Assembly (NCBI GenBank): GCA_964419925.1
Contig: CAYQPR010000001.1
Span: 34,865-98,864 of the forward strand
DNA: 64,000 nucleotides
DNA from: Candidatus Woesearchaeota archaeon
Lineage (GTDB): Archaea > Nanobdellota > Nanobdellia > SCGC-AAA011-G17 > GW2011-AR20
Reading direction: 5' to 3'
Positions 15,596 through 49,090 of this stretch are shown piece after piece (within the stretch, counting starts at the first letter, position 1; each line of letters begins with the position of its first letter). The notes under the pieces were generated by a model. That model was given only the letters and a program-made list of their open reading frames with translations. It did not search any database and was not told the origin of the DNA. A program made the position numbers and the translations under genes.

Positions 15596-16186
15596 ATGAA
15601 ATTTAAGTTTGAAACTTCAAAAAAAGAAATTATTGATATCTTAAAGGCGTGGATAGTTGTTTCAATTTCATTTGCGGTTATCTTAGGCGATAGAAATATA
15701 CTTTCTTATAAATTTTTAGCTAATCTTTTATTAGCCGCGGTAACTGTTGGGGTTGGATTTTTATTTCATGAATTAAGCCACAAAGTTTTAGCTCAAAAAT
15801 ATGGTGCGATCGCTGAATTTAGAAGCTTTGATGTAATGCTTGTTCTAGCCTTAGTAATGAGTTTTTTTCTGGGAATGGTATTTGCTGCACCTGGTGCGGT
15901 TATGATTGCCGGTGGTAATATTAATATTAAAAAATATGGAAAAATTTCAGCTGCAGGACCAATTATAAATTTAATTTTAGCTTTGATGTTTTTTGCTTTA
16001 AGTCAGCTTAATTTTAGTTCATATTTTAACTTAATGGGAAGTTATGGGTTTTTTGTTAATTCTTGGCTAGCTTTATTTAATATGATTCCGTTCTGGGAGT
16101 TTGATGGAAGAAAAATATTTATGTGGAGTAAAACTGTTTGGGTTATTATTGTTGCTATTGCTTCTGTATTTTTATTTGTTTTTTAG
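15596..16186 (+). CDS. site-2-protease-like (M50 family) membrane metalloprotease
   Basis: HExxH within a TM helix (FLFHELSHKVLAQ) and a later FDG motif. Multi-pass membrane protein. Confidence 0.55.
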   Translation: MKFKFETSKKEIIDILKAWIVVSISFAVILGDRNILSYKFLANLLLAAVTVGVGFLFHELSHKVLAQKYGAIAEFRSFDVMLVLALVMSFFLGMVFAAPGAVMIAGGNINIKKYGKISAAGPIINLILALMFFALSQLNFSSYFNLMGSYGFFVNSWLALFNMIPFWEFDGRKIFMWSKTVWVIIVAIASVFLFVF

Positions 16187-16199
16187 ATTTTGCTAAAAG

Positions 16200-16243
16200 A
16201 AATATTTATAAACAATTTAGAAATATTTATAAACAATTTAGAG
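16200..16243. repeat. perfect 22-bp tandem duplication (aaatatttataaacaatttaga x2)
   Basis: Read directly in the intergenic region upstream of the racemase gene. Confidence 0.6.
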
Positions 16244-16257
16244 ATTATTAATCTTAT

Positions 16258-16950
16258 ATGAATAAAGTAGGAATTATTGGCGGACTTGGACCAGAAACAA
16301 CTTCTGAATTTTACTTAGACATAATTTTTTCTTGTTATCAAAAATCTAAAAGAGAAAGACCTGGAGTTATTATCTCAAGTGTTCCTTTACCTTACCAGAT
16401 TGAAGAAGATTTAATAATGAGTAATAAAGGAAGCGAAAGATATATCGCATTTTTAGTTAATGAGGCTAAAAGGCTAGAGAAAGCTGGTGTCGATTTTATT
16501 GTTATGCCTTGTAATTCGCTTCATGTATTTATTGAAGAAATTAGAAAAGCTGTAAAAATTCCAGTTTTAAGTATTATTGAAGAAACTGTGAAATTTCTTA
16601 AGAAAAATAAGTTTAAAAAAGTTGGAATTGTTTCTTCATCTGCAACAATTCAGAACAAATTATATGAAAATGCTTTTGAGAAGGATAATATTGTGTATGA
16701 AACCCCAAATGATTTTCAACAGGCTAAAATGGGAAAATTTATTATGAATCTTGTTATGGGTCAACAAAATAATAAAGATCGTGAAGAATTAATAAAGATT
16801 ATTGGAGATTTTGAGAATAAACAAGTAGATTGTGTTATTCTTGCATGTACGGATTTACAATTATTAATTCCGAAACACCAGAATTTGAAAATATTTGATA
16901 CAATGAAAATATTTGCTGATGCAACCGTTGATAAGATTTTAGAAGAATAA
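16258..16950 (+). CDS. aspartate/glutamate racemase family protein (aspartate-racemase-like)
   Basis: GIIGGLGPETT, VMPCNSLH and ILACTDL are the two catalytic-Cys motifs of Asp/Glu racemases. Confidence 0.75.
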   Translation: MNKVGIIGGLGPETTSEFYLDIIFSCYQKSKRERPGVIISSVPLPYQIEEDLIMSNKGSERYIAFLVNEAKRLEKAGVDFIVMPCNSLHVFIEEIRKAVKIPVLSIIEETVKFLKKNKFKKVGIVSSSATIQNKLYENAFEKDNIVYETPNDFQQAKMGKFIMNLVMGQQNNKDREELIKIIGDFENKQVDCVILACTDLQLLIPKHQNLKIFDTMKIFADATVDKILEE

Positions 16951-17025
16951 GGTAATTTTAACTTACTAATCAATTAAACTGCAGGTTAGATAAGTTTAAA
17001 TATTTAGTTTGTATCGATTAATTTT

Positions 17026-20000
17026 ATGAAAAAAGGAGTTTATGTTATTGTTTTATTATTGGTTTTATTTTCTGCTTATTTTTTAATTAATGTTTTTAGT
17101 GAAGAGGTTGTTGGAGGAAAGGTTAAAACAAATAATCAAGATTCTCAGCCACAACAAAATATGATTAATTATATACAAAAATCATTAACAAATATTAATT
17201 ATAATAAGATTATAACAACTTCTAATGCAGAACAAGAATTAAGAAATTATATGGGCACTTTAAATATAAATGATGAACATTTTAAGTTAGATAAAATTAC
17301 TCAATTCAAGAATAAATTATTTGTTTATTTTGATCAATATTATAAGAATATTCCAGTTTATAATTCTAAGAACGTATTTTATGTTAATAATGAAAAACTA
17401 AGTTTTACAAAAACAAATTATTATGGTAAAATTAATTTAGATGTTAATCCTAATTTAAAAGAAAACCAAATTGATGATTTAATTAAAAATAAAAATTTTC
17501 TAAACCAATTTGAAAATAAATATTATGATATTATTGGAAATGAGAGAAGGTATGATTTTTCTAAAATTAATTTAGATCAAATCAAAATAGATAAAAAAGA
17601 ATTACTCATTTATCCTAAAAATGATGAATACTACCTAAGTTATAGACTAGTTATTAATCATAAAGATTTTGATTTAACTTATTTTATTGATGCAAATACC
17701 GGGGGGATATTGGATATAAAAGATAATAGAATTTACTATGATGTTTCTGGAACAGTTATAGGGAAGGAATGGGAAGATCCTTTTACAGGGGGAACACAAT
17801 TGGAAAAACCATTTCAACACAACTATATTGGTATTGGTGAAAATCAAATTGAAACTGATGAAAATGGTTATTATTATATATCAGATTTGAATGGATTAAC
17901 TAATCTTGAATCTTATTTATCTGGACCGTGGGTAACTGTTTATAATTCCCAATTAGAAGAATCAAAACATCTTTCTTCCTTTAGTGATAACTCTCAACAT
18001 GATTGGAACTGGGATTTAGATGATAACTCTTATTTAGATGAAGAGAGTAATGTGTTTTACCACATTAATCGAATTCATGATTATGCGGTTTCTATTGGAA
18101 CTGTCGAATTATCTCATTTGCCCGCCACAGTAAATCATGATAATCATTGCAACGCATTTTACTCACGTTACAATAGTTATGGTGTAAATTTTTTTGAAAA
18201 AGGTGATATTCAGGTTGAAGATTTCTTTTTTCCAGAAAATAATTACAATCTTACGTGTGAAAATACCGCATTAATTAATGATGTGGTTTTACATGAATAT
18301 GGACATTACATTATTGATGAATTAGACCCATTACTTTATGATCTTTCAAGTGATTCAAGATTAGATGCAGGGAGAATGCATGAAGGTTTAGCTGATTATT
18401 TTGCATGCGATTTAAATAACAACACAAATTTGGCAGAGGGATTTTATGTAAATGTTACCCGCCCAGTGATTGATATTTCGTTGCCACTTCGAACGTGCAA
18501 TAGTGGAAATCGTTATCCGAAAGATTACGGCAAAGAGATACATTTCGGAGGTAAGATCATATCAAGTTCTGTATTTAGTATAAGGGAAAAAATTGGTAAA
18601 GAGCAATTAGATCCAATTTTGATTAATGCTTTGAGACTCCAACCAACTAATTTTATAGAGTTGTTAGATTCATTAATAATTGCCGACGATGATAATAATA
18701 ACATACTTGATGGGACTCCTCATATAGTAGATATCTGTACTTCTTTCTATGATCATGGGATACTTTCAGATTATTGCATTGGATTTACCAGCAAACCTAT
18801 TGCACATATAGATGAGATTATTCAATCAGTTAATGAAGATCCAAAAATAATATCTGGAAAAATAAATATAAAAGGAACTGTATACCCATCTTATCAATCT
18901 ACATTAGAGAGATACATAATTAGTATTGGAAATTATTCGGTAACATTTCAAAATCCAAATGGTATAAAAAAAGATATTTTAAGTTATAGTTTTGATACCT
19001 TTCATGTAGATGACGGTACCTATAATCTTAGTTTAATCGCAATAGATTCTAACGGTTTTATAGAAAGTGATAACTTCAAGATTTATATTGACAATAAATG
19101 GCCAATAAATTTAACAGTTAGACCAGATTATGGTTTTTCTACTGGTTCTCCTGTGGCATTTAATCTTGATAATGATGCTGAAGATGAAATCTTGATTAGT
19201 GTAGTGAAGACAAATAACCCTGGAGAAAAGCTTAGTTATTATCTTTATGCATTTAAGAGTAATGGGAATCGTCTAGAAGGATGGCCAAAAAGGTATAGTA
19301 ACTTTGAAATAAACCCTCAAACAGCTGGAACGAGTATTAGTAATATACCCGATCCGTCTATTGGTGATTTAGAAAATGATGGCAATAATGAGATTGTGAT
19401 TTCAATCGGTAATTTATTAGCAGTGTTAAATTTAAGTGGAGATGTTAAATGGTCAAAAAGTCTTGATGGATATTCATATGCTAGTCCCGTTTTAGCAGAT
19501 TTGTTTAATGATGGAAAGTTAGAAATTATTATTACCCAAAATTTCTTTGACACTAGGACGGTTCCTCCACTCTTAAATTCGAGCCTTATTGTTTATGATT
19601 CAGAGGGCACAATAAAATGGCAAAAAAAATTTGAAAATTATTTTATTGGAGATAGTTATTCAACGATGGGCGATGTTGATGGAGATGGGCATAAAGAAAT
19701 TGTTGTTGTTATGTATAACATTAATGAGTTTAAAAGCAAAATTTATATCTATAATAAAAATGGCGTTCTATTGGAAGGATGGCCAAAATTGATTGAAGGC
19801 ATAAGTAAGGCTTCGTCCCCAATTTTAGCAGATATTAATCATGAGAATAAATTGAGTATATTTTTTGGTGCATCAAGAAAATCGCATTTGCAAAATAGTT
19901 ATCAATACACAATTTATGGATTTTCTTATAATGGAATTAGTTTAAATAATTGGCCTATAAATTTGTCAAGACCTTCATTCTATAACCGACATATTTTTTC

Positions 20001-20925
20001 TATGAGTGACTTAGATGAAGATGGTTATCCTGAAATTGTTGTACCTCTTGATAAAATTTATATCTTGAACAAAAATGGTACTGTTAGAAGTATTCTAAAT
20101 GATACTAATTCAAGATTGGCATACTCTTTTAATATTGGTTCTGGTGTTTCAGATATAGATGGTAACGGAGATAAGGAAATTGTTATTAATACTGGAGAAG
20201 GATCAAATCTTCGTAGTATTACAATATACAAAGATACCGGTGAGATAATCTCGAGTTGGCCAAAACAATTAAATGGATTTGCCAAATCCAGCCCATTAAT
20301 ATCAGATATCGATAAAGACAAAAAAATAGAAATTATTGTAGCGACAGAATTAGGATCATTATACTTTTTTGAACAAGACACCTCAATTAATGAGTATCAA
20401 TTTGATTGGCAAATGTTCCGACATGATGTTCAACATACAGGACAATTTGATAATAAGGATAAAAACATTAAAATTATTAATCTAGTTAAACCGGGTTCTT
20501 TAAAGGTTGATCAAACAGGAACATTCATATGGTCCTCCATCGCTCAAAGTTTTAAAAATAATACCATTTTGTGGGACATTAAATGGACGGGCCCAATTGG
20601 AATTGGTTCTGGTCTTAAAGGAACATGTCAAGATAGATTTTGTTTTAATTATTCAGCCATTCAAAAATGGACAAAACCAGGAAAATATACGATTACGGCA
20701 AAAGTTTCAAATGGTTTAAACTCGGATACAAATATTGCTGAAATTAATGTTGGAATGTGTTCGGATGGTATGCTCTATGGTTCATGTTCTAAAACAAAAC
20801 CAAATTATTGTAATAGCAATGGAAAAATAATTAATAATTGCCAAAGATGTGGCTGTCCTCGTAATTTATTGTGTCAAAAGAATGGAAGCTGTAAAATCGG
20901 AAATGATTTACCAAAAACTAATTAA
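17026..20925 (+). CDS. large exported zincin (HEYGH gluzincin-like) plus FG-GAP/beta-propeller repeat surface protein with a Cys-rich C-terminus
   Basis: N-terminal signal/anchor, HEYGH...EGLADYF metalloprotease motif, at least 7 repeats of the form D(L/V)D(G/E)DG..EIVV (integrin-alpha/FG-GAP-like), and a C-terminal Cys-rich tail. Confidence 0.6.
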   Translation: MKKGVYVIVLLLVLFSAYFLINVFSEEVVGGKVKTNNQDSQPQQNMINYIQKSLTNINYNKIITTSNAEQELRNYMGTLNINDEHFKLDKITQFKNKLFVYFDQYYKNIPVYNSKNVFYVNNEKLSFTKTNYYGKINLDVNPNLKENQIDDLIKNKNFLNQFENKYYDIIGNERRYDFSKINLDQIKIDKKELLIYPKNDEYYLSYRLVINHKDFDLTYFIDANTGGILDIKDNRIYYDVSGTVIGKEWEDPFTGGTQLEKPFQHNYIGIGENQIETDENGYYYISDLNGLTNLESYLSGPWVTVYNSQLEESKHLSSFSDNSQHDWNWDLDDNSYLDEESNVFYHINRIHDYAVSIGTVELSHLPATVNHDNHCNAFYSRYNSYGVNFFEKGDIQVEDFFFPENNYNLTCENTALINDVVLHEYGHYIIDELDPLLYDLSSDSRLDAGRMHEGLADYFACDLNNNTNLAEGFYVNVTRPVIDISLPLRTCNSGNRYPKDYGKEIHFGGKIISSSVFSIREKIGKEQLDPILINALRLQPTNFIELLDSLIIADDDNNNILDGTPHIVDICTSFYDHGILSDYCIGFTSKPIAHIDEIIQSVNEDPKIISGKINIKGTVYPSYQSTLERYIISIGNYSVTFQNPNGIKKDILSYSFDTFHVDDGTYNLSLIAIDSNGFIESDNFKIYIDNKWPINLTVRPDYGFSTGSPVAFNLDNDAEDEILISVVKTNNPGEKLSYYLYAFKSNGNRLEGWPKRYSNFEINPQTAGTSISNIPDPSIGDLENDGNNEIVISIGNLLAVLNLSGDVKWSKSLDGYSYASPVLADLFNDGKLEIIITQNFFDTRTVPPLLNSSLIVYDSEGTIKWQKKFENYFIGDSYSTMGDVDGDGHKEIVVVMYNINEFKSKIYIYNKNGVLLEGWPKLIEGISKASSPILADINHENKLSIFFGASRKSHLQNSYQYTIYGFSYNGISLNNWPINLSRPSFYNRHIFSMSDLDEDGYPEIVVPLDKIYILNKNGTVRSILNDTNSRLAYSFNIGSGVSDIDGNGDKEIVINTGEGSNLRSITIYKDTGEIISSWPKQLNGFAKSSPLISDIDKDKKIEIIVATELGSLYFFEQDTSINEYQFDWQMFRHDVQHTGQFDNKDKNIKIINLVKPGSLKVDQTGTFIWSSIAQSFKNNTILWDIKWTGPIGIGSGLKGTCQDRFCFNYSAIQKWTKPGKYTITAKVSNGLNSDTNIAEINVGMCSDGMLYGSCSKTKPNYCNSNGKIINNCQRCGCPRNLLCQKNGSCKIGNDLPKTN

Positions 20926-21737: not shown

Positions 21738-24146
21738 TTATTCTTTACTTATTTTAGCTAATGAGCTTACTTTATCGTTTTCTAATCTAATAACTCTTAC
21801 ACCAGAAGTAACTCTTCCAACAATGGAAATTTGATTTACAGGAACTCTAATTGTAATTCCCTTTTCTGTGATTAACATTATTTCTTCATCATCATAAACT
21901 GCTTTTATTGAAACAACATCCAAGTTTCTAGAATCTTCTTTTAAATATTTAGTAATTATGTTAGTAACCCCTTTTCCGCCACGTTTTATTAATCTATATT
22001 CATCAATTTTAGTTCTTTTTCCATATCCGTTGCTCGTTATCGTCAATAATGTTGAATTTTCATTGACTTTTTCCATTCCAATGACTTCATCATTTTCATT
22101 TAGTCTAATTCCTCTTACACCAATTGAATTTCTTCCAACAGAGGTTATATCTTTTTCATTAAATCTTGCTGCTAATCCAAACTTTGTTGCGATTATTACT
22201 TCATCATTTCCAGAACTTAAGATAACATTAACTAATTCATCTTTATCAAGTAATTTTATAGCCATTAATCCTGAGCTTCTTGAACTTTCATATTCCTTTA
22301 ATTTTGTTTTTTTAATAATTCCCTTTTTAGTCATGAATATTAGATAACTTTCATCAAATTTAGTTATTGGAAGAATTGCATTTACTTTTTCATTTTCTTC
22401 TAATTTTAATAAATTGATCATTGCTTTTCCTTTTGAATATCTTCCTTCTAACGGAAGTTGATATGTTTTTAACTGGAAGCATTTACCTTTGTTTGTAAAG
22501 AAGAATAAATTGTTTAGATTGCTTGTTACAAATAAATCTCTTACTAGATCTTGTTCTTTTGTTTCTGTTCCAATGAATCCTTTTCCGCCACGTTTTTGTT
22601 GTCTATATTCTACTAACGGTGTTTGTTTTATATAACCTGAATATGTTAAAGTTACAACAACATCATTTTCTTGTATCATACTCTCTTCAACGAATTCATC
22701 ATGATTCTCTTCAACTAATGTTTTTCTTTCATCGCCATATTTATTTTTAATTTCAATTAATTCATTTTTCATTATATCATAAACTTTATTCTCATTTGAT
22801 AATATTTCAATTAACTCCTTAATTAAACTTAATAATCCATTATATTCTTCTTGTAATTTATTTTGTTCTAAAGAGGTTAATCTTTGCAATTTCATATCTA
22901 AAATAGCGAGAGATTGTTCGTTGCTTAATGCGTAATTGTTGATTAAATTATTTTTAGCTTCGTCATTATTTTTTGATTTCTTAATTAATGTAATAACATT
23001 ATCAATATCACTTAAAGCGATTCTTAATCCCTCTAAAATATGAGCACGTTTTTGAGATTTATTTAAATCAAATTTAGCTCTTCTTGTTATAACATTAAAT
23101 CGATGTTTAACAAAAGAGATAATTAATTCTTTTAAGTTCATCACCTTTGGCTTGTTTTCATCTAATGCAAGCATTATAATTCCAAAAGTAGTTTGTAGTT
23201 GTGTATGTGAATATAATTTATTTAGGATAACTTCAGAATTAACATCTTTTTTTAATTCTATTACTAATCTCATTCCTTTTCGATCACTTTCATCTCTGAT
23301 ATCACTTATTCCCTCAATAATTTTATTTTTAACTAAATCGGCTATGTTTTCAATCAATACCGTTTTATTTACTTGATAAGGAATTTCTTCTATTATTATT
23401 TTTCTTGGTTCTGTTTTAGCTTTTCCTCTAACAATAATTTTTCCCCTTCCTGTTTTATATGCTTCAATTATTCCTTGTCTCCCAGAGATTATTCCTCCAG
23501 TTGGAAAATCAGGGCCTTTAATTAAATTTAACATTTCACTTATTGAAACTTCTTTATTTTCTATAACTAAGTTTACAACATCAATGATCTCTGAAATATT
23601 ATGGGGTGGAATATTTGTTGCCATCCCAACTGCAATACCTGAACTTCCATTAATTAATAAATTTGGAATTTTACTTGGAAGAACTAAAGGTTCTTTTAAT
23701 GAGTTATCGTAATTGGGTGTAAAATCAACCGTCTCTTTTTCTATATCTTCTAATATTTCTTCAGATAATTTACTTAATTTTGCTTCTGTGTATCTTGAGG
23801 CTGCTGCAGAATCTCCATCAACGCTTCCAAAATTTCCTTGACCAACTACTAGCGGATATCTCAATGAAAAATCTTGTGCCATTCTAACTAAAGAATCATA
23901 AACTGCGATGTCTCCGTGAGGATGATATTTTCCAAGCACCTCTCCTACGATTCTTGCGGATTTTTTTGTTTGTTTATTACTTTGCAAGCCAAGTTCATTC
24001 ATTGCAAATAAAATTCTTCTGTGAACCGGTTTTAATCCATCTCTTGCGTCAGGTAATGCTCTTGCGGTTATAACAGACATAGCATATTCTATGTAACTTG
24101 ATTTCATCTCTTCTTCAATTAATTTAGTTTGTATTTGCTGTGGCAT
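21738..24146 (-). CDS. gyrA: DNA gyrase subunit A
   Basis: [20 protein letters not shown]-terminus, active-site [12 protein letters not shown]-terminal beta-pinwheel repeats. 802 aa. Confidence 0.92.
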
Positions 24147-46496: not shown

Positions 46497-46765
46497 ATTA
46501 CCATCCTGTAGAACTCAGATTCCCCGATAGTTGGACTTTTTCTAATTATTTTTATTATGTCACCTTTTTTTACATCTAAATTTATAACCGCTGGATCTTC
46601 TTTTAGAATTCTTGGAAGCTGTTTTTTTGATACGTTTAATTTTTTTACCAATTCGTCAGCCTCCTCTTCACTCAATTTTATGTGCTTAGGTACAAAGTTA
46701 TGTTTCTCAACGTTGATTTCTTGTTCCATTTTTTTTGGTATGAACGGGCCGGATGGGACTTTCAC
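46493..46765 (-). CDS. rpoH: RNA polymerase subunit H (Rpb5-like)
   Basis: HNFVPKH..LSEEEADEL..PAV..KGDIIKIIRKSPTIGESEFYRMVI. The true start is probably the internal Met at ~46729, because the first ~13 codons overlap the tRNA-Lys gene. Confidence 0.8.
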   Translation of the reverse strand: MKVPSGPFIPKKMEQEINVEKHNFVPKHIKLSEEEADELVKKLNVSKKQLPRILKEDPAVINLDVKKGDIIKIIRKSPTIGESEFYRMVI

Positions 46766-46841
46766 ATCGTTTTGAACCCACGACCACCTGCTTTCTTCTT
46801 TGCTTAAAAGGCAGGTGCTCTACCAAGCTGAGCTACCGGCC
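46744..46841 (-). tRNA. tRNA-Lys (anticodon UUU) carrying two ~12-nt insertions (putative introns) in the anticodon loop and T-loop
   Basis: Hand fold: GGGCCGG-TA-GCTC-AGCTTGGTA-GAGC-A-CCTGC-[CTTTTAA+GCAAAGAAGAAA]-GCAGG-TGGTC-GTGGG-[TTCAAA+ACGATGTGAAAG+T]-CCCAT-CCGGCCC-G. Removing the two inserts gives a canonical 74-nt tRNA. Confidence 0.55.
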
Positions 46842-47057
46842 CATCATCGTCGATATTTTTGAACAATCTTGCTATTTTTTAGTTTTAGCTGAAGTTATTT
46901 ATAGTTCTTACGGGCATAAATTTGTATCTGAAAACGTTTTTTGAACTTTTAGTCATTTTTTAGAAAGATTGTCCTTTTATCGATGATTTTTTTGCATTTT
47001 ATTGGTTTATAAAACTTTCTCTTCTTTTGATGTGCAAACAGGTTATATATAAAGGTT

Positions 47058-47240: not shown

Positions 47241-48113
47241 TTATAGCTTTGTTTGGAAAAAAGTAGGTTTATAGTTTGTTACAACAATCTCGTTAATTTT
47301 GCCTCTATCATTCCCATTACTATTAATCATCCTATTTGCCCTAACAATTTCAATATTATGCTCATTATACAAATTTTTAATAAATTCAGTGTCGCTATTG
47401 CTTAACATAACATTACAACCTTTTTTATGTAACTTCTTAAAGACTTGTGCTAATTGCTTTTGTTCATCTTCTAGAAAGTTATCCTTTGTATATGTAGTAA
47501 AGCTTTCTTTCTTTAAAGGCATATAAGGTGGATCAAAATAAATAAAATCTTTCTTTTTAGCATATTCTAAAACTTTTTCAAAAGACATATTTTTAATTTC
47601 AACATTCTTTAATAATTGAGATAATCGTCTTAACTCTGTTTCATTATATATCGATGGATTAACATAACTACCAATAGGGACATTAAAACCACCCTTTGAA
47701 TTAACACGATATAAACCATTAAAACAAGTCTTATTTAGATAAATAGTTCTTGACGCTCTTTCTATTTTATTTAATTCTTTAGGATTTAAATCTCTTATTT
47801 TATAGTAATATTCTGTATTATGTGCTTGTTTATGTTCCTTTAAGCTTAAAATTAATTCCTCAACATTATTTTTAATAACCTCATAACAATTCATTAACTC
47901 CTCATTTGTATCAGAAATTAAAACTTTCTTGGGATTATAAGTTTGTAATATATAAAACAAGACAGCTCCACCACCAACAAATGGTTCATAATAATTTTCT
48001 ATTTTTCTAGGAAAGAATTTTTGAAACTGTTTCAATAATTGCTTTTTACCACCAGCCCATTTTACAATAGTAGGAATTTCTACCCTTACCATATTTTTAT
48101 TAATAATTTTCAT
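47241..48113 (-). CDS. dam: Dam-type N6-adenine DNA methyltransferase (D12 class)
   Basis: Motif I VKWAGGKKQLL...EPFVGGGAV and motif IV IYFDPPYMP. No adjacent restriction endonuclease was recognised. Confidence 0.8.
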   Translation of the reverse strand: MKIINKNMVRVEIPTIVKWAGGKKQLLKQFQKFFPRKIENYYEPFVGGGAVLFYILQTYNPKKVLISDTNEELMNCYEVIKNNVEELILSLKEHKQAHNTEYYYKIRDLNPKELNKIERASRTIYLNKTCFNGLYRVNSKGGFNVPIGSYVNPSIYNETELRRLSQLLKNVEIKNMSFEKVLEYAKKKDFIYFDPPYMPLKKESFTTYTKDNFLEDEQKQLAQVFKKLHKKGCNVMLSNSDTEFIKNLYNEHNIEIVRANRMINSNGNDRGKINEIVVTNYKPTFFQTKL

Positions 48114-49090
48114 TTTTTTAAACCTTTTGATAATAAGATTAATTCAAGCCATCTATTATTATCTTCTAATTTTAATGTAGGAATTGCCAATTCATAAGGG
48201 CATTTATTTATTGCTTGATGAACCCTAATAAAATTATAATAAATTTCCCAACCTTTCATTATGCTTTGGGCAGAATACAAAGAGCCGTGAAATCCACGAA
48301 ATACTTTTGTTCTTGCTCTTACGTTGTTGTGCAATCTCTCTATTTTATGATTAAAACCTCTTTCATCAGCGATTACAATATTGTGAACTATTTTTGTTTT
48401 AGCTTCTCTTTTATGTAATCCAAAAGATTTGTTTAATGCTTTTCTATAAGCTTGTAAACCATCTGTTGTAACTACATTAACTTGTTCGCCTGTCTTTTGT
48501 TTTGCTACTTTTAAAACATTAGCCATATTCTCAATAGTTCTACTTTGTAAATAATCTGAAGCTACAATAAACCTTGTTTTTGTATCCATAACATCTACAA
48601 ACCAATTCTGTTCTACACCTAATTTTGCTTTATGACTTTTACGTCTTCTATATTCTACCTCATCACTCATTAACTCTTTACCAGCCTGAACATTTAATTT
48701 ATTTGTATAATCATTAATTAGATTAGAATATTTAACAACCCACCTATAAATTGTTGAGTTATTAGAATTGTGAGGATAAAAAGCTTGTAAATGTTTTTGT
48801 ATACTTCTTGTTGAAATACCTCTAAAAAATAGATCAAGACATAAAGTAATTTTGTTTTTTGAATTTTTCATTCGGCAGAATCCATCATCTAAAATGAAAT
48901 TCTTTCTGCAATTCTTACAGAAATATCTTTGTATATTACCTCTATTCTTGGTATACCTTAATCCTCTCTTCTTAGTATTTCGAGAATTACAATAAATACA
49001 GGAAACATTTTTATACTTGTTTTGATTATCCTTTGTAGGATCGATTTGTTCTTGACGGGACATTTTGATTCCTGTGGGCTTCACGCCCAC
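48110..49090 (-). CDS. IS6-family DDE transposase with an N-terminal zinc finger
   Basis: N-terminal CIYC..CKNC finger, and a C-terminal region (GFNHKIERLHNNVRARTKVFRGFHGSLYSAQSIMKGWEIYYNFIRVHQAI) that closely resembles the IS6/IS26/ISH14 transposase core. Confidence 0.75.
   Translation of the reverse strand: MGVKPTGIKMSRQEQIDPTKDNQNKYKNVSCIYCNSRNTKKRGLRYTKNRGNIQRYFCKNCRKNFILDDGFCRMKNSKNKITLCLDLFFRGISTRSIQKHLQAFYPHNSNNSTIYRWVVKYSNLINDYTNKLNVQAGKELMSDEVEYRRRKSHKAKLGVEQNWFVDVMDTKTRFIVASDYLQSRTIENMANVLKVAKQKTGEQVNVVTTDGLQAYRKALNKSFGLHKREAKTKIVHNIVIADERGFNHKIERLHNNVRARTKVFRGFHGSLYSAQSIMKGWEIYYNFIRVHQAINKCPYELAIPTLKLEDNNRWLELILLSKGLKK

Follow-up and report, generated by a model that had tools for sequence, protein, structure and literature searches.

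The locus holds a single open reading frame at 17026..20925 on the forward strand of the window, the whole 64,000-nt stretch of DNA that was analyzed. The frame starts with ATG and encodes 1299 aa, exactly as the first-pass annotation had called it, and the identical protein is present in public data as P0001, an unnamed entry. From the N to the C terminus, the protein is composed of a signal peptide or anchor, an FTP/PepSY propeptide, a thermolysin-fold protease, an Ig-like spacer, a propeller, a PKD-like domain, and an 8-Cys module (Table 1), which is an unusual arrangement of already known parts. The architecture first proposed, an exported gluzincin protease with an FG-GAP-type propeller and a Cys-rich tail, is supported by motifs, profiles, and models; its three elements stand, neither of the two outcomes that would have overturned it was seen, and what it had missed are the FTP/PepSY propeptide and the two Ig/PKD-like domains.

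The gene is surrounded by housekeeping genes, with an Asp/Glu racemase gene upstream of it. The window has a GC content of ~28% and encodes eIF2-gamma, aIF5B, EF2, and split RpoA/RpoB, which identifies it as archaeal and agrees with the AT-rich archaeal genome that had been claimed. The closest named relatives of its eIF2-gamma are from Nanoarchaeota/Woesearchaeota, with 65-75% identity. Judged by its genes, the genome of origin is archaeal and DPANN-like, and the source archaeon is probably symbiotic. The TATA-box-like element TTTAAATA could possibly be a promoter element for an mRNA with a short leader or none, a weak indication given how often such strings occur at 28% GC.

Table 1. Features of the protease-propeller gene and its upstream region (window positions).
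Feature	Residues (aa)	Position	Strand	Evidence
TATA-box-like element TTTAAATA		16995..17002	+	~27 nt upstream of ATG, read off the sequence
Putative Sec-type signal peptide or signal anchor	1-27	17026..17106	+	Hydropathy scan
FTP + PepSY-like propeptide	~45-232	17158..17721	+	Profiles and AF2 model
Tract DNA-identical (100%) to the paralogous P0002 gene (L022)		17219..17450	+	Strain and paralog comparison
Thermolysin-fold zinc endopeptidase catalytic domain	~233-590	17722..18795	+	AF2, Foldseek, profiles
HEYGH, two zinc-ligand His and catalytic Glu	423-427	18292..18306	+	Alignment, invariance
EGLAD, third zinc-ligand Glu and Asp of ExxxD	453-457	18382..18396	+	Alignment, invariance
His506, thermolysin His231 equivalent	506	18541..18543	+	Invariant; aligned to the His of 'GGVHTNSGI' in aureolysin
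Ig/PKD-like beta-sandwich spacer	~591-690	18796..19095	+	AF2 strands, Foldseek
Eight-bladed FG-GAP-type beta-propeller	~691-1128	19096..20409	+	Pfam, profile, AF2, Foldseek
W-x-M-F-x-H-D-x-Q-x-T-G motif closing the propeller	1127-1140	20404..20445	+	Conservation in relatives
PKD-like domain, sub-threshold	~1150-1243	20473..20754	+	Pfam, scanned alone
8-Cys module CSDGMLYGSCSKTKPNYCNSNGKIINNCQRCGCPRNLLCQKNGSC	1245-1289	20758..20892	+	Cys spacing, phmmer

The N terminus consists of MKK followed by a 20-residue hydrophobic core, and a hydropathy scan found VYVIVLLLVLFSAYFLINVF (aa 5-27) to be the only strongly hydrophobic stretch of the 1299-aa protein, in accordance with the signal or anchor that had been read there; signal cleavage after VFS (aa 25) is possible. 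At the equivalent position, P0003 and P0005 carry a lipobox-like ISGC, and P0006, P0008, and P0009 carry a Lys-rich tail plus a TM anchor. FTP/PepSY regions are the inhibitory/chaperone prodomain of M4/M36 zymogens, and since the protein has such a propeptide, it is probably a zymogen. Pfam FTP and PepSY are sub-threshold in this protein, and FTP matches 6 of 10 relatives. The NCBIfam T9SS M36 equivalog, T9SSA_dep_M36, matches the propeptide only (aa 58-236, E=1.5e-9), and its 36.6 bits are below the cut-off of 885. Profile matches to the thermolysin and MCP-02 propeptides (5a3y, 2.9e-8; 3nqy, 1.7e-4) were accompanied by structural ones, as Foldseek placed the AF2 model of the propeptide near that of MCP-02 (3nqz_A, TMt 0.60) and the YpeB PepSY domain.

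The region around HEYGH models as a thermolysin fold, with a pLDDT mostly >90 in the catalytic domain and a mean of 85 over the protease model. In Foldseek, the catalytic domain matched aureolysin (7.8e-9, TMt 0.63), LasB (TMt 0.67), and vibriolysin, within a TMt range of 0.60-0.67, and the M36 fungalysins at ~2e-6 with TM-scores of 0.45-0.50, below those to M4 enzymes. Profile comparison against PDB gave aureolysin (1e-12), neutral protease (2.9e-10), M36 (8.7e-9), and thermolysin (~1e-6), and sequence identity to the M4 structures is 10-16%. The HEYGH...EGLADYF gluzincin site that had been proposed is found at aa 423-427 and aa 453-459: HEYGH aligns with HEITH/HELTH of aureolysin and neutral protease, EGLAD aligns with the NESFSD/NEAISD motif of M4 enzymes, and all of the 10 full-length and 25 catalytic-domain relatives keep H423, E424, H427, E453, and D457. 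The thermolysin-type residues that can be aligned are all kept, namely the Asn-Ala pair, HExxH, ExxxD, Arg489 ('LRxxN'), and His506 ('vHsg'), and in the profile alignment to aureolysin/neutral protease the Asn-Ala, HExxH, Glu, Asp, Arg, and His residues fall on invariant columns. From established M4 enzymology, we take His506 to be the equivalent of the transition-state-stabilising His231.

The family assignment is less simple. M36 (PF02128) is the only Pfam catalytic-domain model that matches this protein, at 15.6 bits (E=0.0099, aa 336-465), below its gathering score of 23.3; it matches 6 of 10 relatives at E<=0.01, with 9.8e-7 as the best value. The Pfam M4 models (PF01447/PF02868) gave no match in this protein at E<=1, and PF01447 matches one of the 10 full-length relatives (E=0.0042). 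The catalytic domain is intermediate between M4 and M36 and reaches neither curated Pfam cut-off, so the family-specific properties are not simply transferable to this protein. An M6/immune-inhibitor-A identity was rejected, as no M6 model is among the 10 Pfam families listed at E<=1, and so was the Asp-zincin type HExxHxxGxxD, as the motif reads HEYGHYIIDELD and the downstream ligand is Glu, as in gluzincins. The earlier wording, "thermolysin-like or immune-inhibitor-A-like", therefore holds as thermolysin/fungalysin-like (M4/M36) and fails in its InhA/M6 part. PF20773, presumably the InhA-like MAM insert, is carried by distant Methanosarcina-type relatives only.

After the protease, the spacer (strands at model residues 563-659 in AF2) resembles the PKD domains of PrtV (4l9d, TMt 0.77) and ColG in Foldseek, with TMt values of 0.70-0.77; aa 591-690 had no Pfam match, and some relatives have a second spacer copy at the equivalent position. 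The propeller itself is composed of eight repeats anchored at aa 713, 781, 825, 883, 936, 995, 1043, and 1094, with the calcium-loop-like motif D-x-[DN]-x-[DN]-G-x-x-E. At least seven DxDxDG repeats had been read from the sequence; the repeats are there, but the strict DxDxDG is present in only three of the eight loops, and ligand-type residues occupy loop positions 1, 3, 5, and 9 in five to six of them. Six of the putative calcium loops are complete or nearly so, and the two at aa 825 and 936 are degenerate. Pfam FG-GAP_3 (70.8 bits vs a cut-off of 26.9, E=1.4e-19) is far above chance, FG-GAP also exceeds its cut-off (25.2 vs 22.1 bits, E=1.5e-5), and Beta-prop_CGLA matches at E=6.6e-9 and is found in 3 of 10 relatives.

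The AF2 model (pLDDT 70-95) gives a closed propeller, and the top Foldseek TM-scores are to eight-bladed propellers (Cake8, TMt 0.79; Scone-E, 0.78; BamB, 0.70), with Bap1 at 2.5e-12. Profile matches were obtained to Bap1 (6mlt, 2.4e-15), PL11 lyases (1.8e-11), and integrin alpha-V (~7e-7). A seven-bladed head of integrin-alpha type was rejected on the basis of the eight repeats and the eight-bladed best structural matches, and of the "integrin-alpha/FG-GAP" propeller that had been named, the FG-GAP part is the one that survives. In the motif that closes the propeller, W1128 and D1134 are invariant and P1129, M1130, and G1139 are nearly so, and the motif is also present in a 1271-aa paralog.

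The C-terminal PKD candidate was matched by Pfam PF00801 with 19.8 bits (E=7.8e-4), short of the gathering score of 23.5, and AF2 confidence is <50 for the PKD-like domain and tail because the tail is absent from most relatives. The terminal Cys-rich segment that had been reported is confirmed as eight Cys with a spacing of 8,7,9,2,1,5,5, and Cys 1201 and 1206 lie inside the preceding PKD-like domain. A phmmer search (E<=1e-3) recovered the module in 902 representative proteins, where it is repeated in tandem as many as 34 times, and neither Pfam, NCBIfam, nor the PDB sequences gave a match to it. The tail is not idiosyncratic, as the 45-aa module of which it is a single copy is widespread, and the module is probably disulfide-knotted and extracellular. 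It is also found at the C termini of P0002 and the L003 homolog, and in other secreted proteins it is accompanied by Laminin_G_3, beta-helix, and dockerin-like domains.

Full-length relatives are rare, with ~10 among 5.8 billion clusters, from DPANN-type metagenome assemblies, and catalytic-domain relatives also occur in free-living Methanosarcina and Methanoperedens. One relative's genome has a tandem array of P0008, P0009, an S8 subtilase-propeller protein, P0006, and the 1271-aa paralog, in which the propeller of the subtilisin-headed protein is homologous (BLASTP 9e-20). This context suggests that the protein is a member of a family of paralogs that is expanding in tandem among DPANN-type archaea and whose homologous propeller body would bear either a metalloprotease of this kind or a subtilisin head. 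When two copies from one sample were compared, the propeller diverged fastest, with 20-34% identity vs 42-80% in the protease. Compared with the strain variant L023 (99.72% identical), the window has nine differences in the gene, all at 17289-17383, and at all nine positions it matches the paralog P0002, so the identical tract in Table 1 would be either a gene-conversion patch or an assembly chimera. The gene neighborhood differs across the relatives' loci: P0002 is flanked by amino-acid permease and M42 aminopeptidase genes, an M17 aminopeptidase gene divergently adjoins P0004, and P0005 is located in a ribosomal-protein cluster.

Taken together, we think it probable that the protein is a secreted multi-domain zinc endopeptidase precursor for targeted extracellular proteolysis. 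Following M4/M36 enzymology, it would be exported as an inactive zymogen, whose propeptide would fold and inhibit the catalytic domain and then be removed autocatalytically. Since the only membrane-anchoring element precedes the propeptide, the protease-propeller-tail body would be released on maturation; the propeller and C-terminal modules would then tether it to a polymeric or cell-surface ligand, and this tethering would set the site of proteolysis. Degraded extracellular protein would provide a metabolically reduced cell with peptides and amino acids. The aminopeptidase and amino-acid permease neighbors of relatives favor targeted proteolysis for amino-acid scavenging, as does the Asp/Glu racemase gene upstream in the window, and from this context targeted extracellular protein degradation with amino-acid scavenging is the most likely job, but because the neighborhood is not conserved, the adjacency at two loci may be a coincidence. 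A role in host or prey surface interaction, as first suggested, is plausible, and the neighbor genes point as much to nutrient scavenging as to such an interaction; a substrate located on the surface of a host is quite conceivable.

A possible, if rather unlikely, reading is that the propeller and Cys-rich tail attach to the outside of a host cell, archaeal or bacterial (S-layer, glycan), where the protease would degrade the envelope locally to start or keep up the episymbiotic contact. The DPANN-type genome, the tandem paralogs with swapped protease heads, the company that the 8-Cys module keeps with Laminin_G_3, beta-helix, and dockerin-like domains, and the precedent of protease-adhesion proteins in DPANN (PMC6642349) are consistent with it, as are the fast divergence of the propeller and the gene-conversion-like patch, both typical of surface-interaction genes. 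However, relatives of the catalytic domain exist in free-living Methanosarcina and Methanoperedens, the neighbors at two loci suggest peptide or amino-acid use, and the propeller may diverge faster simply because repeat scaffolds are less constrained; this reading also overlaps with the nutritional one, and the two are not mutually exclusive. A bolder version, speculative and unlikely, would see a DPANN-specific "protease-on-a-propeller" toolkit, with a fast-diversifying eight-bladed recognition body and interchangeable M4/M36-like or subtilisin heads, shuffled by gene conversion among paralogs and used to recognize and open specific host envelopes, and with the 8-Cys tail as a new, widespread extracellular surface-attachment domain family of uncultivated archaea.

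The propeller could also be catalytic or carbohydrate-specific itself, like PL11 rhamnogalacturonan lyases or the exopolysaccharide-binding Bap1, making a bifunctional enzyme that attacks glycoprotein/polysaccharide matrices. Its profile does match the PL11 lyases 4cag, 2zuy, and 2z8r (1.8e-11 to 4e-9) as well as Bap1, and Pfam RGL11_C is found in 2 of 10 relatives, next to Beta-prop_CGLA in three, but the likeness is carried by generic FG-GAP calcium-loop repeats, RGL11_C did not match this protein in the Pfam scan, and the top Foldseek matches are generic or designed eight-blade scaffolds; we regard such a function as very unlikely. Least probable is that the protein acts on its own cell, as an envelope maturation protease or structural surface component processing its own S-layer or pilin precursors. 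The N-terminal anchors or lipoboxes of relatives, the housekeeping-gene setting in the window, and the place of P0005 among ribosomal-protein genes would suit this role; M4/M36-type zymogens, however, are typically secreted endopeptidases of broad specificity, a multi-copy tandem expansion is unusual for a dedicated maturation protease, and the patchy, rare distribution fits poorly with an essential envelope function.

In design logic, as a DPANN protein that combines a protease with adhesion domains, it is similar to the SPEARE proteins of Nanohaloarchaeota, which are large extracytoplasmic protease and adhesion proteins proposed to act in host interaction, with a serine protease, laminin-G, a TM anchor, and a cytoplasmic restriction-endonuclease domain in 3,000-8,500 aa (PMC6642349). 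In contrast, our protein has 1299 aa and a metalloprotease with an FG-GAP propeller; the Pfam scan found none of the SPEARE-defining domains in it, and homology to SPEARE was not detected.

With the M36 fungalysins (Aspergillus fumigatus Mep 4K90, Cryptococcus Mpr1), the protein has in common an FTP-containing propeptide and, by prediction, a signal peptide. The active site of Mpr1 is H586ExxH590...E616xxxD620 (PMC6117016), and both proteins have HEY-x-H and ExxxD with 26 residues from the second His to the Glu (H427...E453 vs H590...E616), so that HExxH and ExxxD at M36 spacing are found together with the FTP-containing propeptide. The C-terminal DGTP..IC..F..HGI helices of the protease also align with the M36 C terminus. 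Unlike fungalysins, the protein is archaeal instead of fungal or bacterial and continues after the protease for ~700 aa, with propeller, PKD-like, and Cys-rich modules that fungalysins lack. In both fold and profile, it matches M4 enzymes best (aureolysin 1BQB, vibriolysin MCP-02 3NQZ, B. cereus neutral protease 1NPC, LasB), and the MCP-02 propeptide is similar to the FTP/PepSY propeptide. The two-lobed thermolysin fold is present with its conserved active-site residues, as the equivalents of Asn112-Ala113, His142/Glu143/His146, Glu166/Asp170, Arg203, and His231 are all kept. In thermolysin, the spacing from HExxH to the Glu is 20, vs 26 here, and M4 enzymes usually carry a C-terminal PPC or PKD domain, whereas this protein carries a propeller.

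The integrin alpha head has the repeat family and the D-x-D-x-D-G-x-x-D/E calcium hairpins in common with this propeller (~7e-7), but it has seven blades and pairs with a beta subunit, compared with eight repeats here. Closer in form are the extracellular Bap1/RbmC (6MLT) and the PL11 lyases YesW/YesX, with eight blades and calcium-loop repeats; Bap1, the eight-bladed matrix adhesin of Vibrio cholerae (PMC8295476), is the best sequence-profile match of the propeller (2.4e-15). Compared with these eight-bladed proteins, ours lacks a beta-prism insert and has its propeller fused to a protease.

Computational follow-up established how the domains of the 1299-aa protein are ordered. It showed that the thermolysin-type active site is complete, that a propeptide is present and that the propeller has eight blades with calcium-loop motifs; it also brought out a predicted export signal and a paralog expansion. 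The structural reading of the first-pass annotation was essentially correct and needed several refinements, namely an eighth blade, the propeptide, which it had missed, and the removal of the M6 family. The ORF starts with ATG at exactly the position reported before, 17026..20925 (+), and is by far the longest of its neighbourhood; stop codons are frequent at the ~28% GC of the window, so chance would not produce so long an open frame. The motifs quoted from the translation are present (hydrophobic N-terminus at aa 5-27, HEYGH at aa 423-427, EGLADYF at aa 453-459), as is the C-terminal cluster of eight Cys.

Features of the 1299-aa protease-propeller protein
Feature	Window position	Residues (aa)	Description
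Signal/anchor		1-27	MKK, then 20-residue hydrophobic core; Sec signal peptide or signal anchor
Propeptide		~45-232	FTP/PepSY type
Catalytic domain		~233-590	AF2 pLDDT mostly >90
Ig/PKD-like beta-sandwich		~591-690	Fold like PKD of PrtV and ColG (Foldseek TM-score 0.70-0.77)
Propeller		~691-1128	Eight repeats; loops at aa 713, 781, 825, 883, 936, 995, 1043, 1094
W-P-M-F-x-H-D-x-Q-x-T-G motif		after last blade	Conserved
PKD-like domain		~1150-1243	Sub-threshold, 19.8 vs 23.5 bits
8-Cys module	20758-20892	1245-1289	One copy of a widespread ~45-aa module

An identical protein (P0001) is already public, unnamed, on a 101-kb NCBI contig, and a strain variant (P0034, at locus L023) is on record at 99.7% identity; this near-identical locus was used in place of P0001 for genomic context. 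The window itself is archaeal core chromosome, with eIF2-gamma, aIF5B, EF2, GluRS, gyrase A/B, and split RpoB and RpoA subunits, and its eIF2-gamma matches, at 65-75% identity, proteins named Nanoarchaeota, Nanoarchaeia or Woesearchaeota by NCBI, which supports the setting of an AT-rich, DPANN-type archaeon. Elsewhere in the window, a 98-nt tRNA at 46745-46842 (-) is detected by Rfam (51.4 bits) and missed by ARAGORN, as would fit an archaeal tRNA with an intron, and a 326-aa ORF at 48110-49090 (-) with a borderline DDE_Tnp_IS240 transposase match (27.2 bits vs a cut-off of 27) may be an insertion-sequence remnant within an otherwise housekeeping region.

The top Foldseek matches of the catalytic domain were thermolysin-clan enzymes without exception, with M4 enzymes foremost (aureolysin at 7.8e-9, vibriolysin, PlM4P and LasB; TM-scores 0.60-0.67) and M36 fungalysins next (~2-4e-6, TM-scores 0.45-0.50). 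A profile built from the catalytic domains of the relatives matched aureolysin (1e-12), the B. cereus neutral protease (2.9e-10), M36 enzymes (~1e-8) and thermolysin (~1e-6) in the PDB; PDB matches came from profiles, not from the single sequence, as a search with the whole protein returned nothing significant. In these profile alignments, the M4 active-site residues coincide with invariant columns of the family: C375-N376-A377 aligns to the M4 Asn-Ala pair, H423/E424/H427 to HExxH, E453/D457 to the Glu ligand and its Asp, R489 to the Arg of 'ALRSMS', and H506 to the His of 'GGVHTNSG', giving the domain everything that a working gluzincin would need. An immune-inhibitor-A-like (InhA/M6) enzyme, which the first-pass annotation had offered as an alternative, was rejected, as the Pfam families listed at E<=1 include no M6 model and the third zinc ligand is Glu, as in gluzincins.

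The choice between M4 and M36 is ambiguous. Pfam M36 was the only catalytic model to match, below its cut-off (15.6 vs 23.3 bits), and Pfam M4 did not match the protein at all. At the motif level the protein is M36-like, with HEY-x-H and an ExxxD 26 residues after the second His, a spacing identical to that of Cryptococcus Mpr1, an M36 enzyme (H590...E616; PMC6117016), and its C-terminal catalytic-domain helices align to the M36 C-terminus, whereas its fold and profile E-values place it a little closer to M4. The protein has the motifs and fold of the M4/M36 group but is not a member certified by the curated models, and NCBI names one of its relatives merely 'FG-GAP-like repeat-containing protein'. 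A catalytic domain lying between the two families and short of both curated Pfam cut-offs is of specialist interest.

The propeptide was recognized from several directions. The NCBIfam model for T9SS-dependent M36 proteases matched this part only (1.5e-9), the family profile matched pro-thermolysin (5a3y, 2.9e-8) and vibriolysin MCP-02 (3nqy) in their propeptides, and the structure predicted by AF2 could be superposed on that of the MCP-02 propeptide (TM-score 0.60) and on the YpeB PepSY domain. Pfam FTP and PepSY stayed below threshold in the window protein; FTP matches 6 of 10 relatives. The family as a whole appears to be exported, because at the position of the signal/anchor two relatives (P0003, P0005) carry a lipobox-like ISGC and three others (P0006, P0008, P0009) a Lys-rich tail with a TM segment.

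No sequence model matched the beta-sandwich that follows the protease (aa ~591-690). The next domain is an FG-GAP-type propeller, as first described, although with eight repeats where at least seven had been reported. Pfam FG-GAP_3 matched far over threshold (70.8 bits, 1.4e-19), and the AF2 model is closed (pLDDT 70-95), with its best TM-scores against eight-bladed scaffolds (Cake8 0.79, Scone-E 0.78, BamB 0.70) and a Foldseek match to Bap1 at 2.5e-12. A seven-bladed integrin-type propeller is ruled out by the eight repeats together with these structural matches. The literal DxDxDG occurs in only three of the eight loops, while the ligand pattern D/N-x-D/N/E-x-D/N-[G]-x-x-E is kept in six, the loops at aa 825 and 936 being degenerate in the window protein. 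For aa 1128-1299, AF2 gave pLDDT <50 and no usable model of the PKD-like domain and the 8-Cys module, because most relatives have other tails and this one is common only to a paralog (P0002) and the homolog at L003.

The 8-Cys module reaches well beyond this family. An exhaustive phmmer search with aa 1241-1299 retrieved 902 representative proteins at E<=1e-3, of which 203 also reached E<=1e-10, and a single protein can have as many as 34 copies in tandem. Among the fetched matches we counted 489 modules in 127 proteins. The main spacing is C-x8-C-x7-C-x8/9-C-x2-C-x-C-x5-C-x5/6-C and the consensus CSDGTlYGQCSxTKPKYC...LidnCxxCGCPsG. An N-terminal hydrophobic segment is found in 135 of 171 module proteins, and the partner domains include Laminin_G_3, beta-helix/NosD, NHL/SGL propellers and dockerin-like segments. 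Proteins built almost wholly of the repeat had no Pfam, NCBIfam or PDB sequence match, a literature search on cysteine-rich DPANN adhesion modules returned nothing relevant, and the sole named module protein is a hypothetical protein of a Candidatus Altiarchaeales MAG. The module looks like an uncurated extracellular domain of uncultivated archaea, which would make it a candidate for a new family, and it may serve as a marker for their secretome; a role in disulfide-stabilised binding or as a spacer is only a guess. Proteins P0155-P0303 are examples that carry it.

The complete protease-propeller architecture is rare: a search of 5.8 billion clusters yielded only ~10 proteins that have it, at 25-41% identity, and the named full-length relatives come from Candidatus Aenigmatarchaeota MAGs and SAGs. 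Two relatives lie in records labelled 'Patescibacteria group bacterium' (L002, JBHPFX010000003.1; L004, JAHIVO010000030.1). L002 is a SAG of the AM-311 series, the same series as an Aenigmatarchaeota SAG with a homolog, and the flanks of both loci are uninformative on taxonomy (only MFS, Band_7, dockerin and Big_7). The labels would reflect mislabelling, contamination or real CPR-DPANN transfer. Taken by itself, the catalytic domain has a wider circle of relatives, in Nanoarchaeota, Woesearchaeota, Methanosarcina and Methanoperedens, often with PF20773, which we take to be an InhA-like MAM insert/domain, and other C-terminal modules. In Methanosarcina-type proteins (P0016-P0027), the N-terminal lobe of this domain is interrupted by an insert of ~140 aa, which coincides with the PF20773 match; the window protein has no such insert.

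On a 277-kb contig, five genes of ~1300-1470 aa form a tandem array of P0008, P0009, a 1465-aa subtilase protein, P0006 and a 1271-aa full-length paralog. Four of the five heads are M4/M36-like, and the 1465-aa protein combines an I9 inhibitor domain and an S8 subtilase with FG-GAP repeats. Its propeller is homologous to that of the window protein (BLASTP 9e-20), and a propeller body of common descent thus bears interchangeable protease heads, suggesting modular evolution of targeted proteases. The array was seen at L026 and L027 (contigs ERZ24794654 NODE_1443 and ERZ24794656 NODE_16).

The gene has another copy in the sample from which the window comes: P0002 (1397 aa), encoded on a different contig (L022) of equal GC content. 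Identity between the two proteins is 96% over aa 51-100, 42-80% in the protease, 20-34% in the propeller and 53% in the 8-Cys tail, and 232 nt of the window (17219-17450) are 100% identical to the paralog (L022 8001-8425 region compared). Within the gene, the window differs from the strain variant L023 at nine sites, all of them at 17289-17383; at each it has the base of the paralog, and the tract reflects either gene conversion between paralogs or a metagenome-assembly chimera. The other 15 differences from L023 (8661 nt compared, 99.72% identical) are packed into 108 nt of gyrA (-), at 22440-22547, which suggests that this segment, too, recombined or that the assembly is faulty there.

By M4/M36 enzymology, the protein would be exported as a zymogen whose propeptide helps folding, blocks the active site and is then removed autocatalytically. 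Maturation would release the protease-Ig-propeller-PKD-Cys body, because the sole hydrophobic anchor lies N-terminal to the propeptide and the C-terminus has none. A C-terminal membrane or PGF-CTERM anchor was ruled out, as no hydrophobic segment is found there. Retention and targeting of the released body would then rest on ligand binding by the propeller and tail.

DPANN archaea lack most biosynthetic pathways, and the role of the protein is most likely to degrade chosen proteins outside the cell so as to scavenge peptides and amino acids, a reading we hold to be probable. The window neighbours include an M50-like membrane peptidase, an Asp/Glu racemase, a SIMPL/DUF541 protein and gyrA/gyrB. 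The M50-like and racemase arrangement is kept in L023 and not beside more distant relatives, and tblastn of ten window neighbours against 21 related loci gave no match at 1e-5, so no conserved operon accompanies the gene. Beside P0002 lie an amino-acid permease gene in divergent orientation and, downstream, one for an M42 aminopeptidase; P0004 adjoins a divergent M17 aminopeptidase, and P0005 lies within a ribosomal-protein cluster. With peptide and amino-acid genes beside two relatives, the context is a weak signal and, where there is any, it points to amino-acid acquisition. Directly upstream of the protease, on the same strand, window 15596-16950 (+) holds the 196-aa M50-family membrane metallopeptidase-like gene and the racemase.

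The host- or prey-surface interaction proposed in the first-pass annotation is plausible, and host-envelope attack or adhesion overlaps with scavenging; as the role itself we consider it rather unlikely. The propeller belongs to the FG-GAP repeat family but is of the eight-bladed Bap1/PL11 type and differs from the integrin type: in the comparison of sequence profiles Bap1 (2.4e-15), described as an adhesin whose propeller has eight blades (PMC8295476), and the eight-bladed PL11 lyases came closest, with integrin alpha after these (~7e-7). A carbohydrate-active or carbohydrate-binding propeller and processing of the cell's own envelope are minor rivals that we regard as improbable. To our knowledge, the routes by which DPANN archaea obtain amino acids or engage hosts are largely uncharted. 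Whether in scavenging or in host engagement, this predicted secreted zymogen, with an intact thermolysin-type active site and a putative binding propeller, is a candidate for such a function.

Searches of the literature on DPANN with FG-GAP and protease, or on FG-GAP with archaea and metallopeptidase, returned no paper on this architecture. The protein resembles the M4/M36 secreted zymogens with accessory binding domains, such as vibriolysins with PPC/PKD domains and PrtV. A similar design logic is seen in the SPEARE proteins of Nanohaloarchaeota, in which protease domains are joined to adhesion domains and for which a part in host interaction has been proposed (PMC6642349); no homology between them and the window protein was detected. 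All components of the window protein are of known kinds and current understanding is not overturned; what sets it apart is how the domains are combined, a catalytic domain intermediate between M4 and M36, paralog arrays in which the heads are swapped, and a Cys module that is uncurated.
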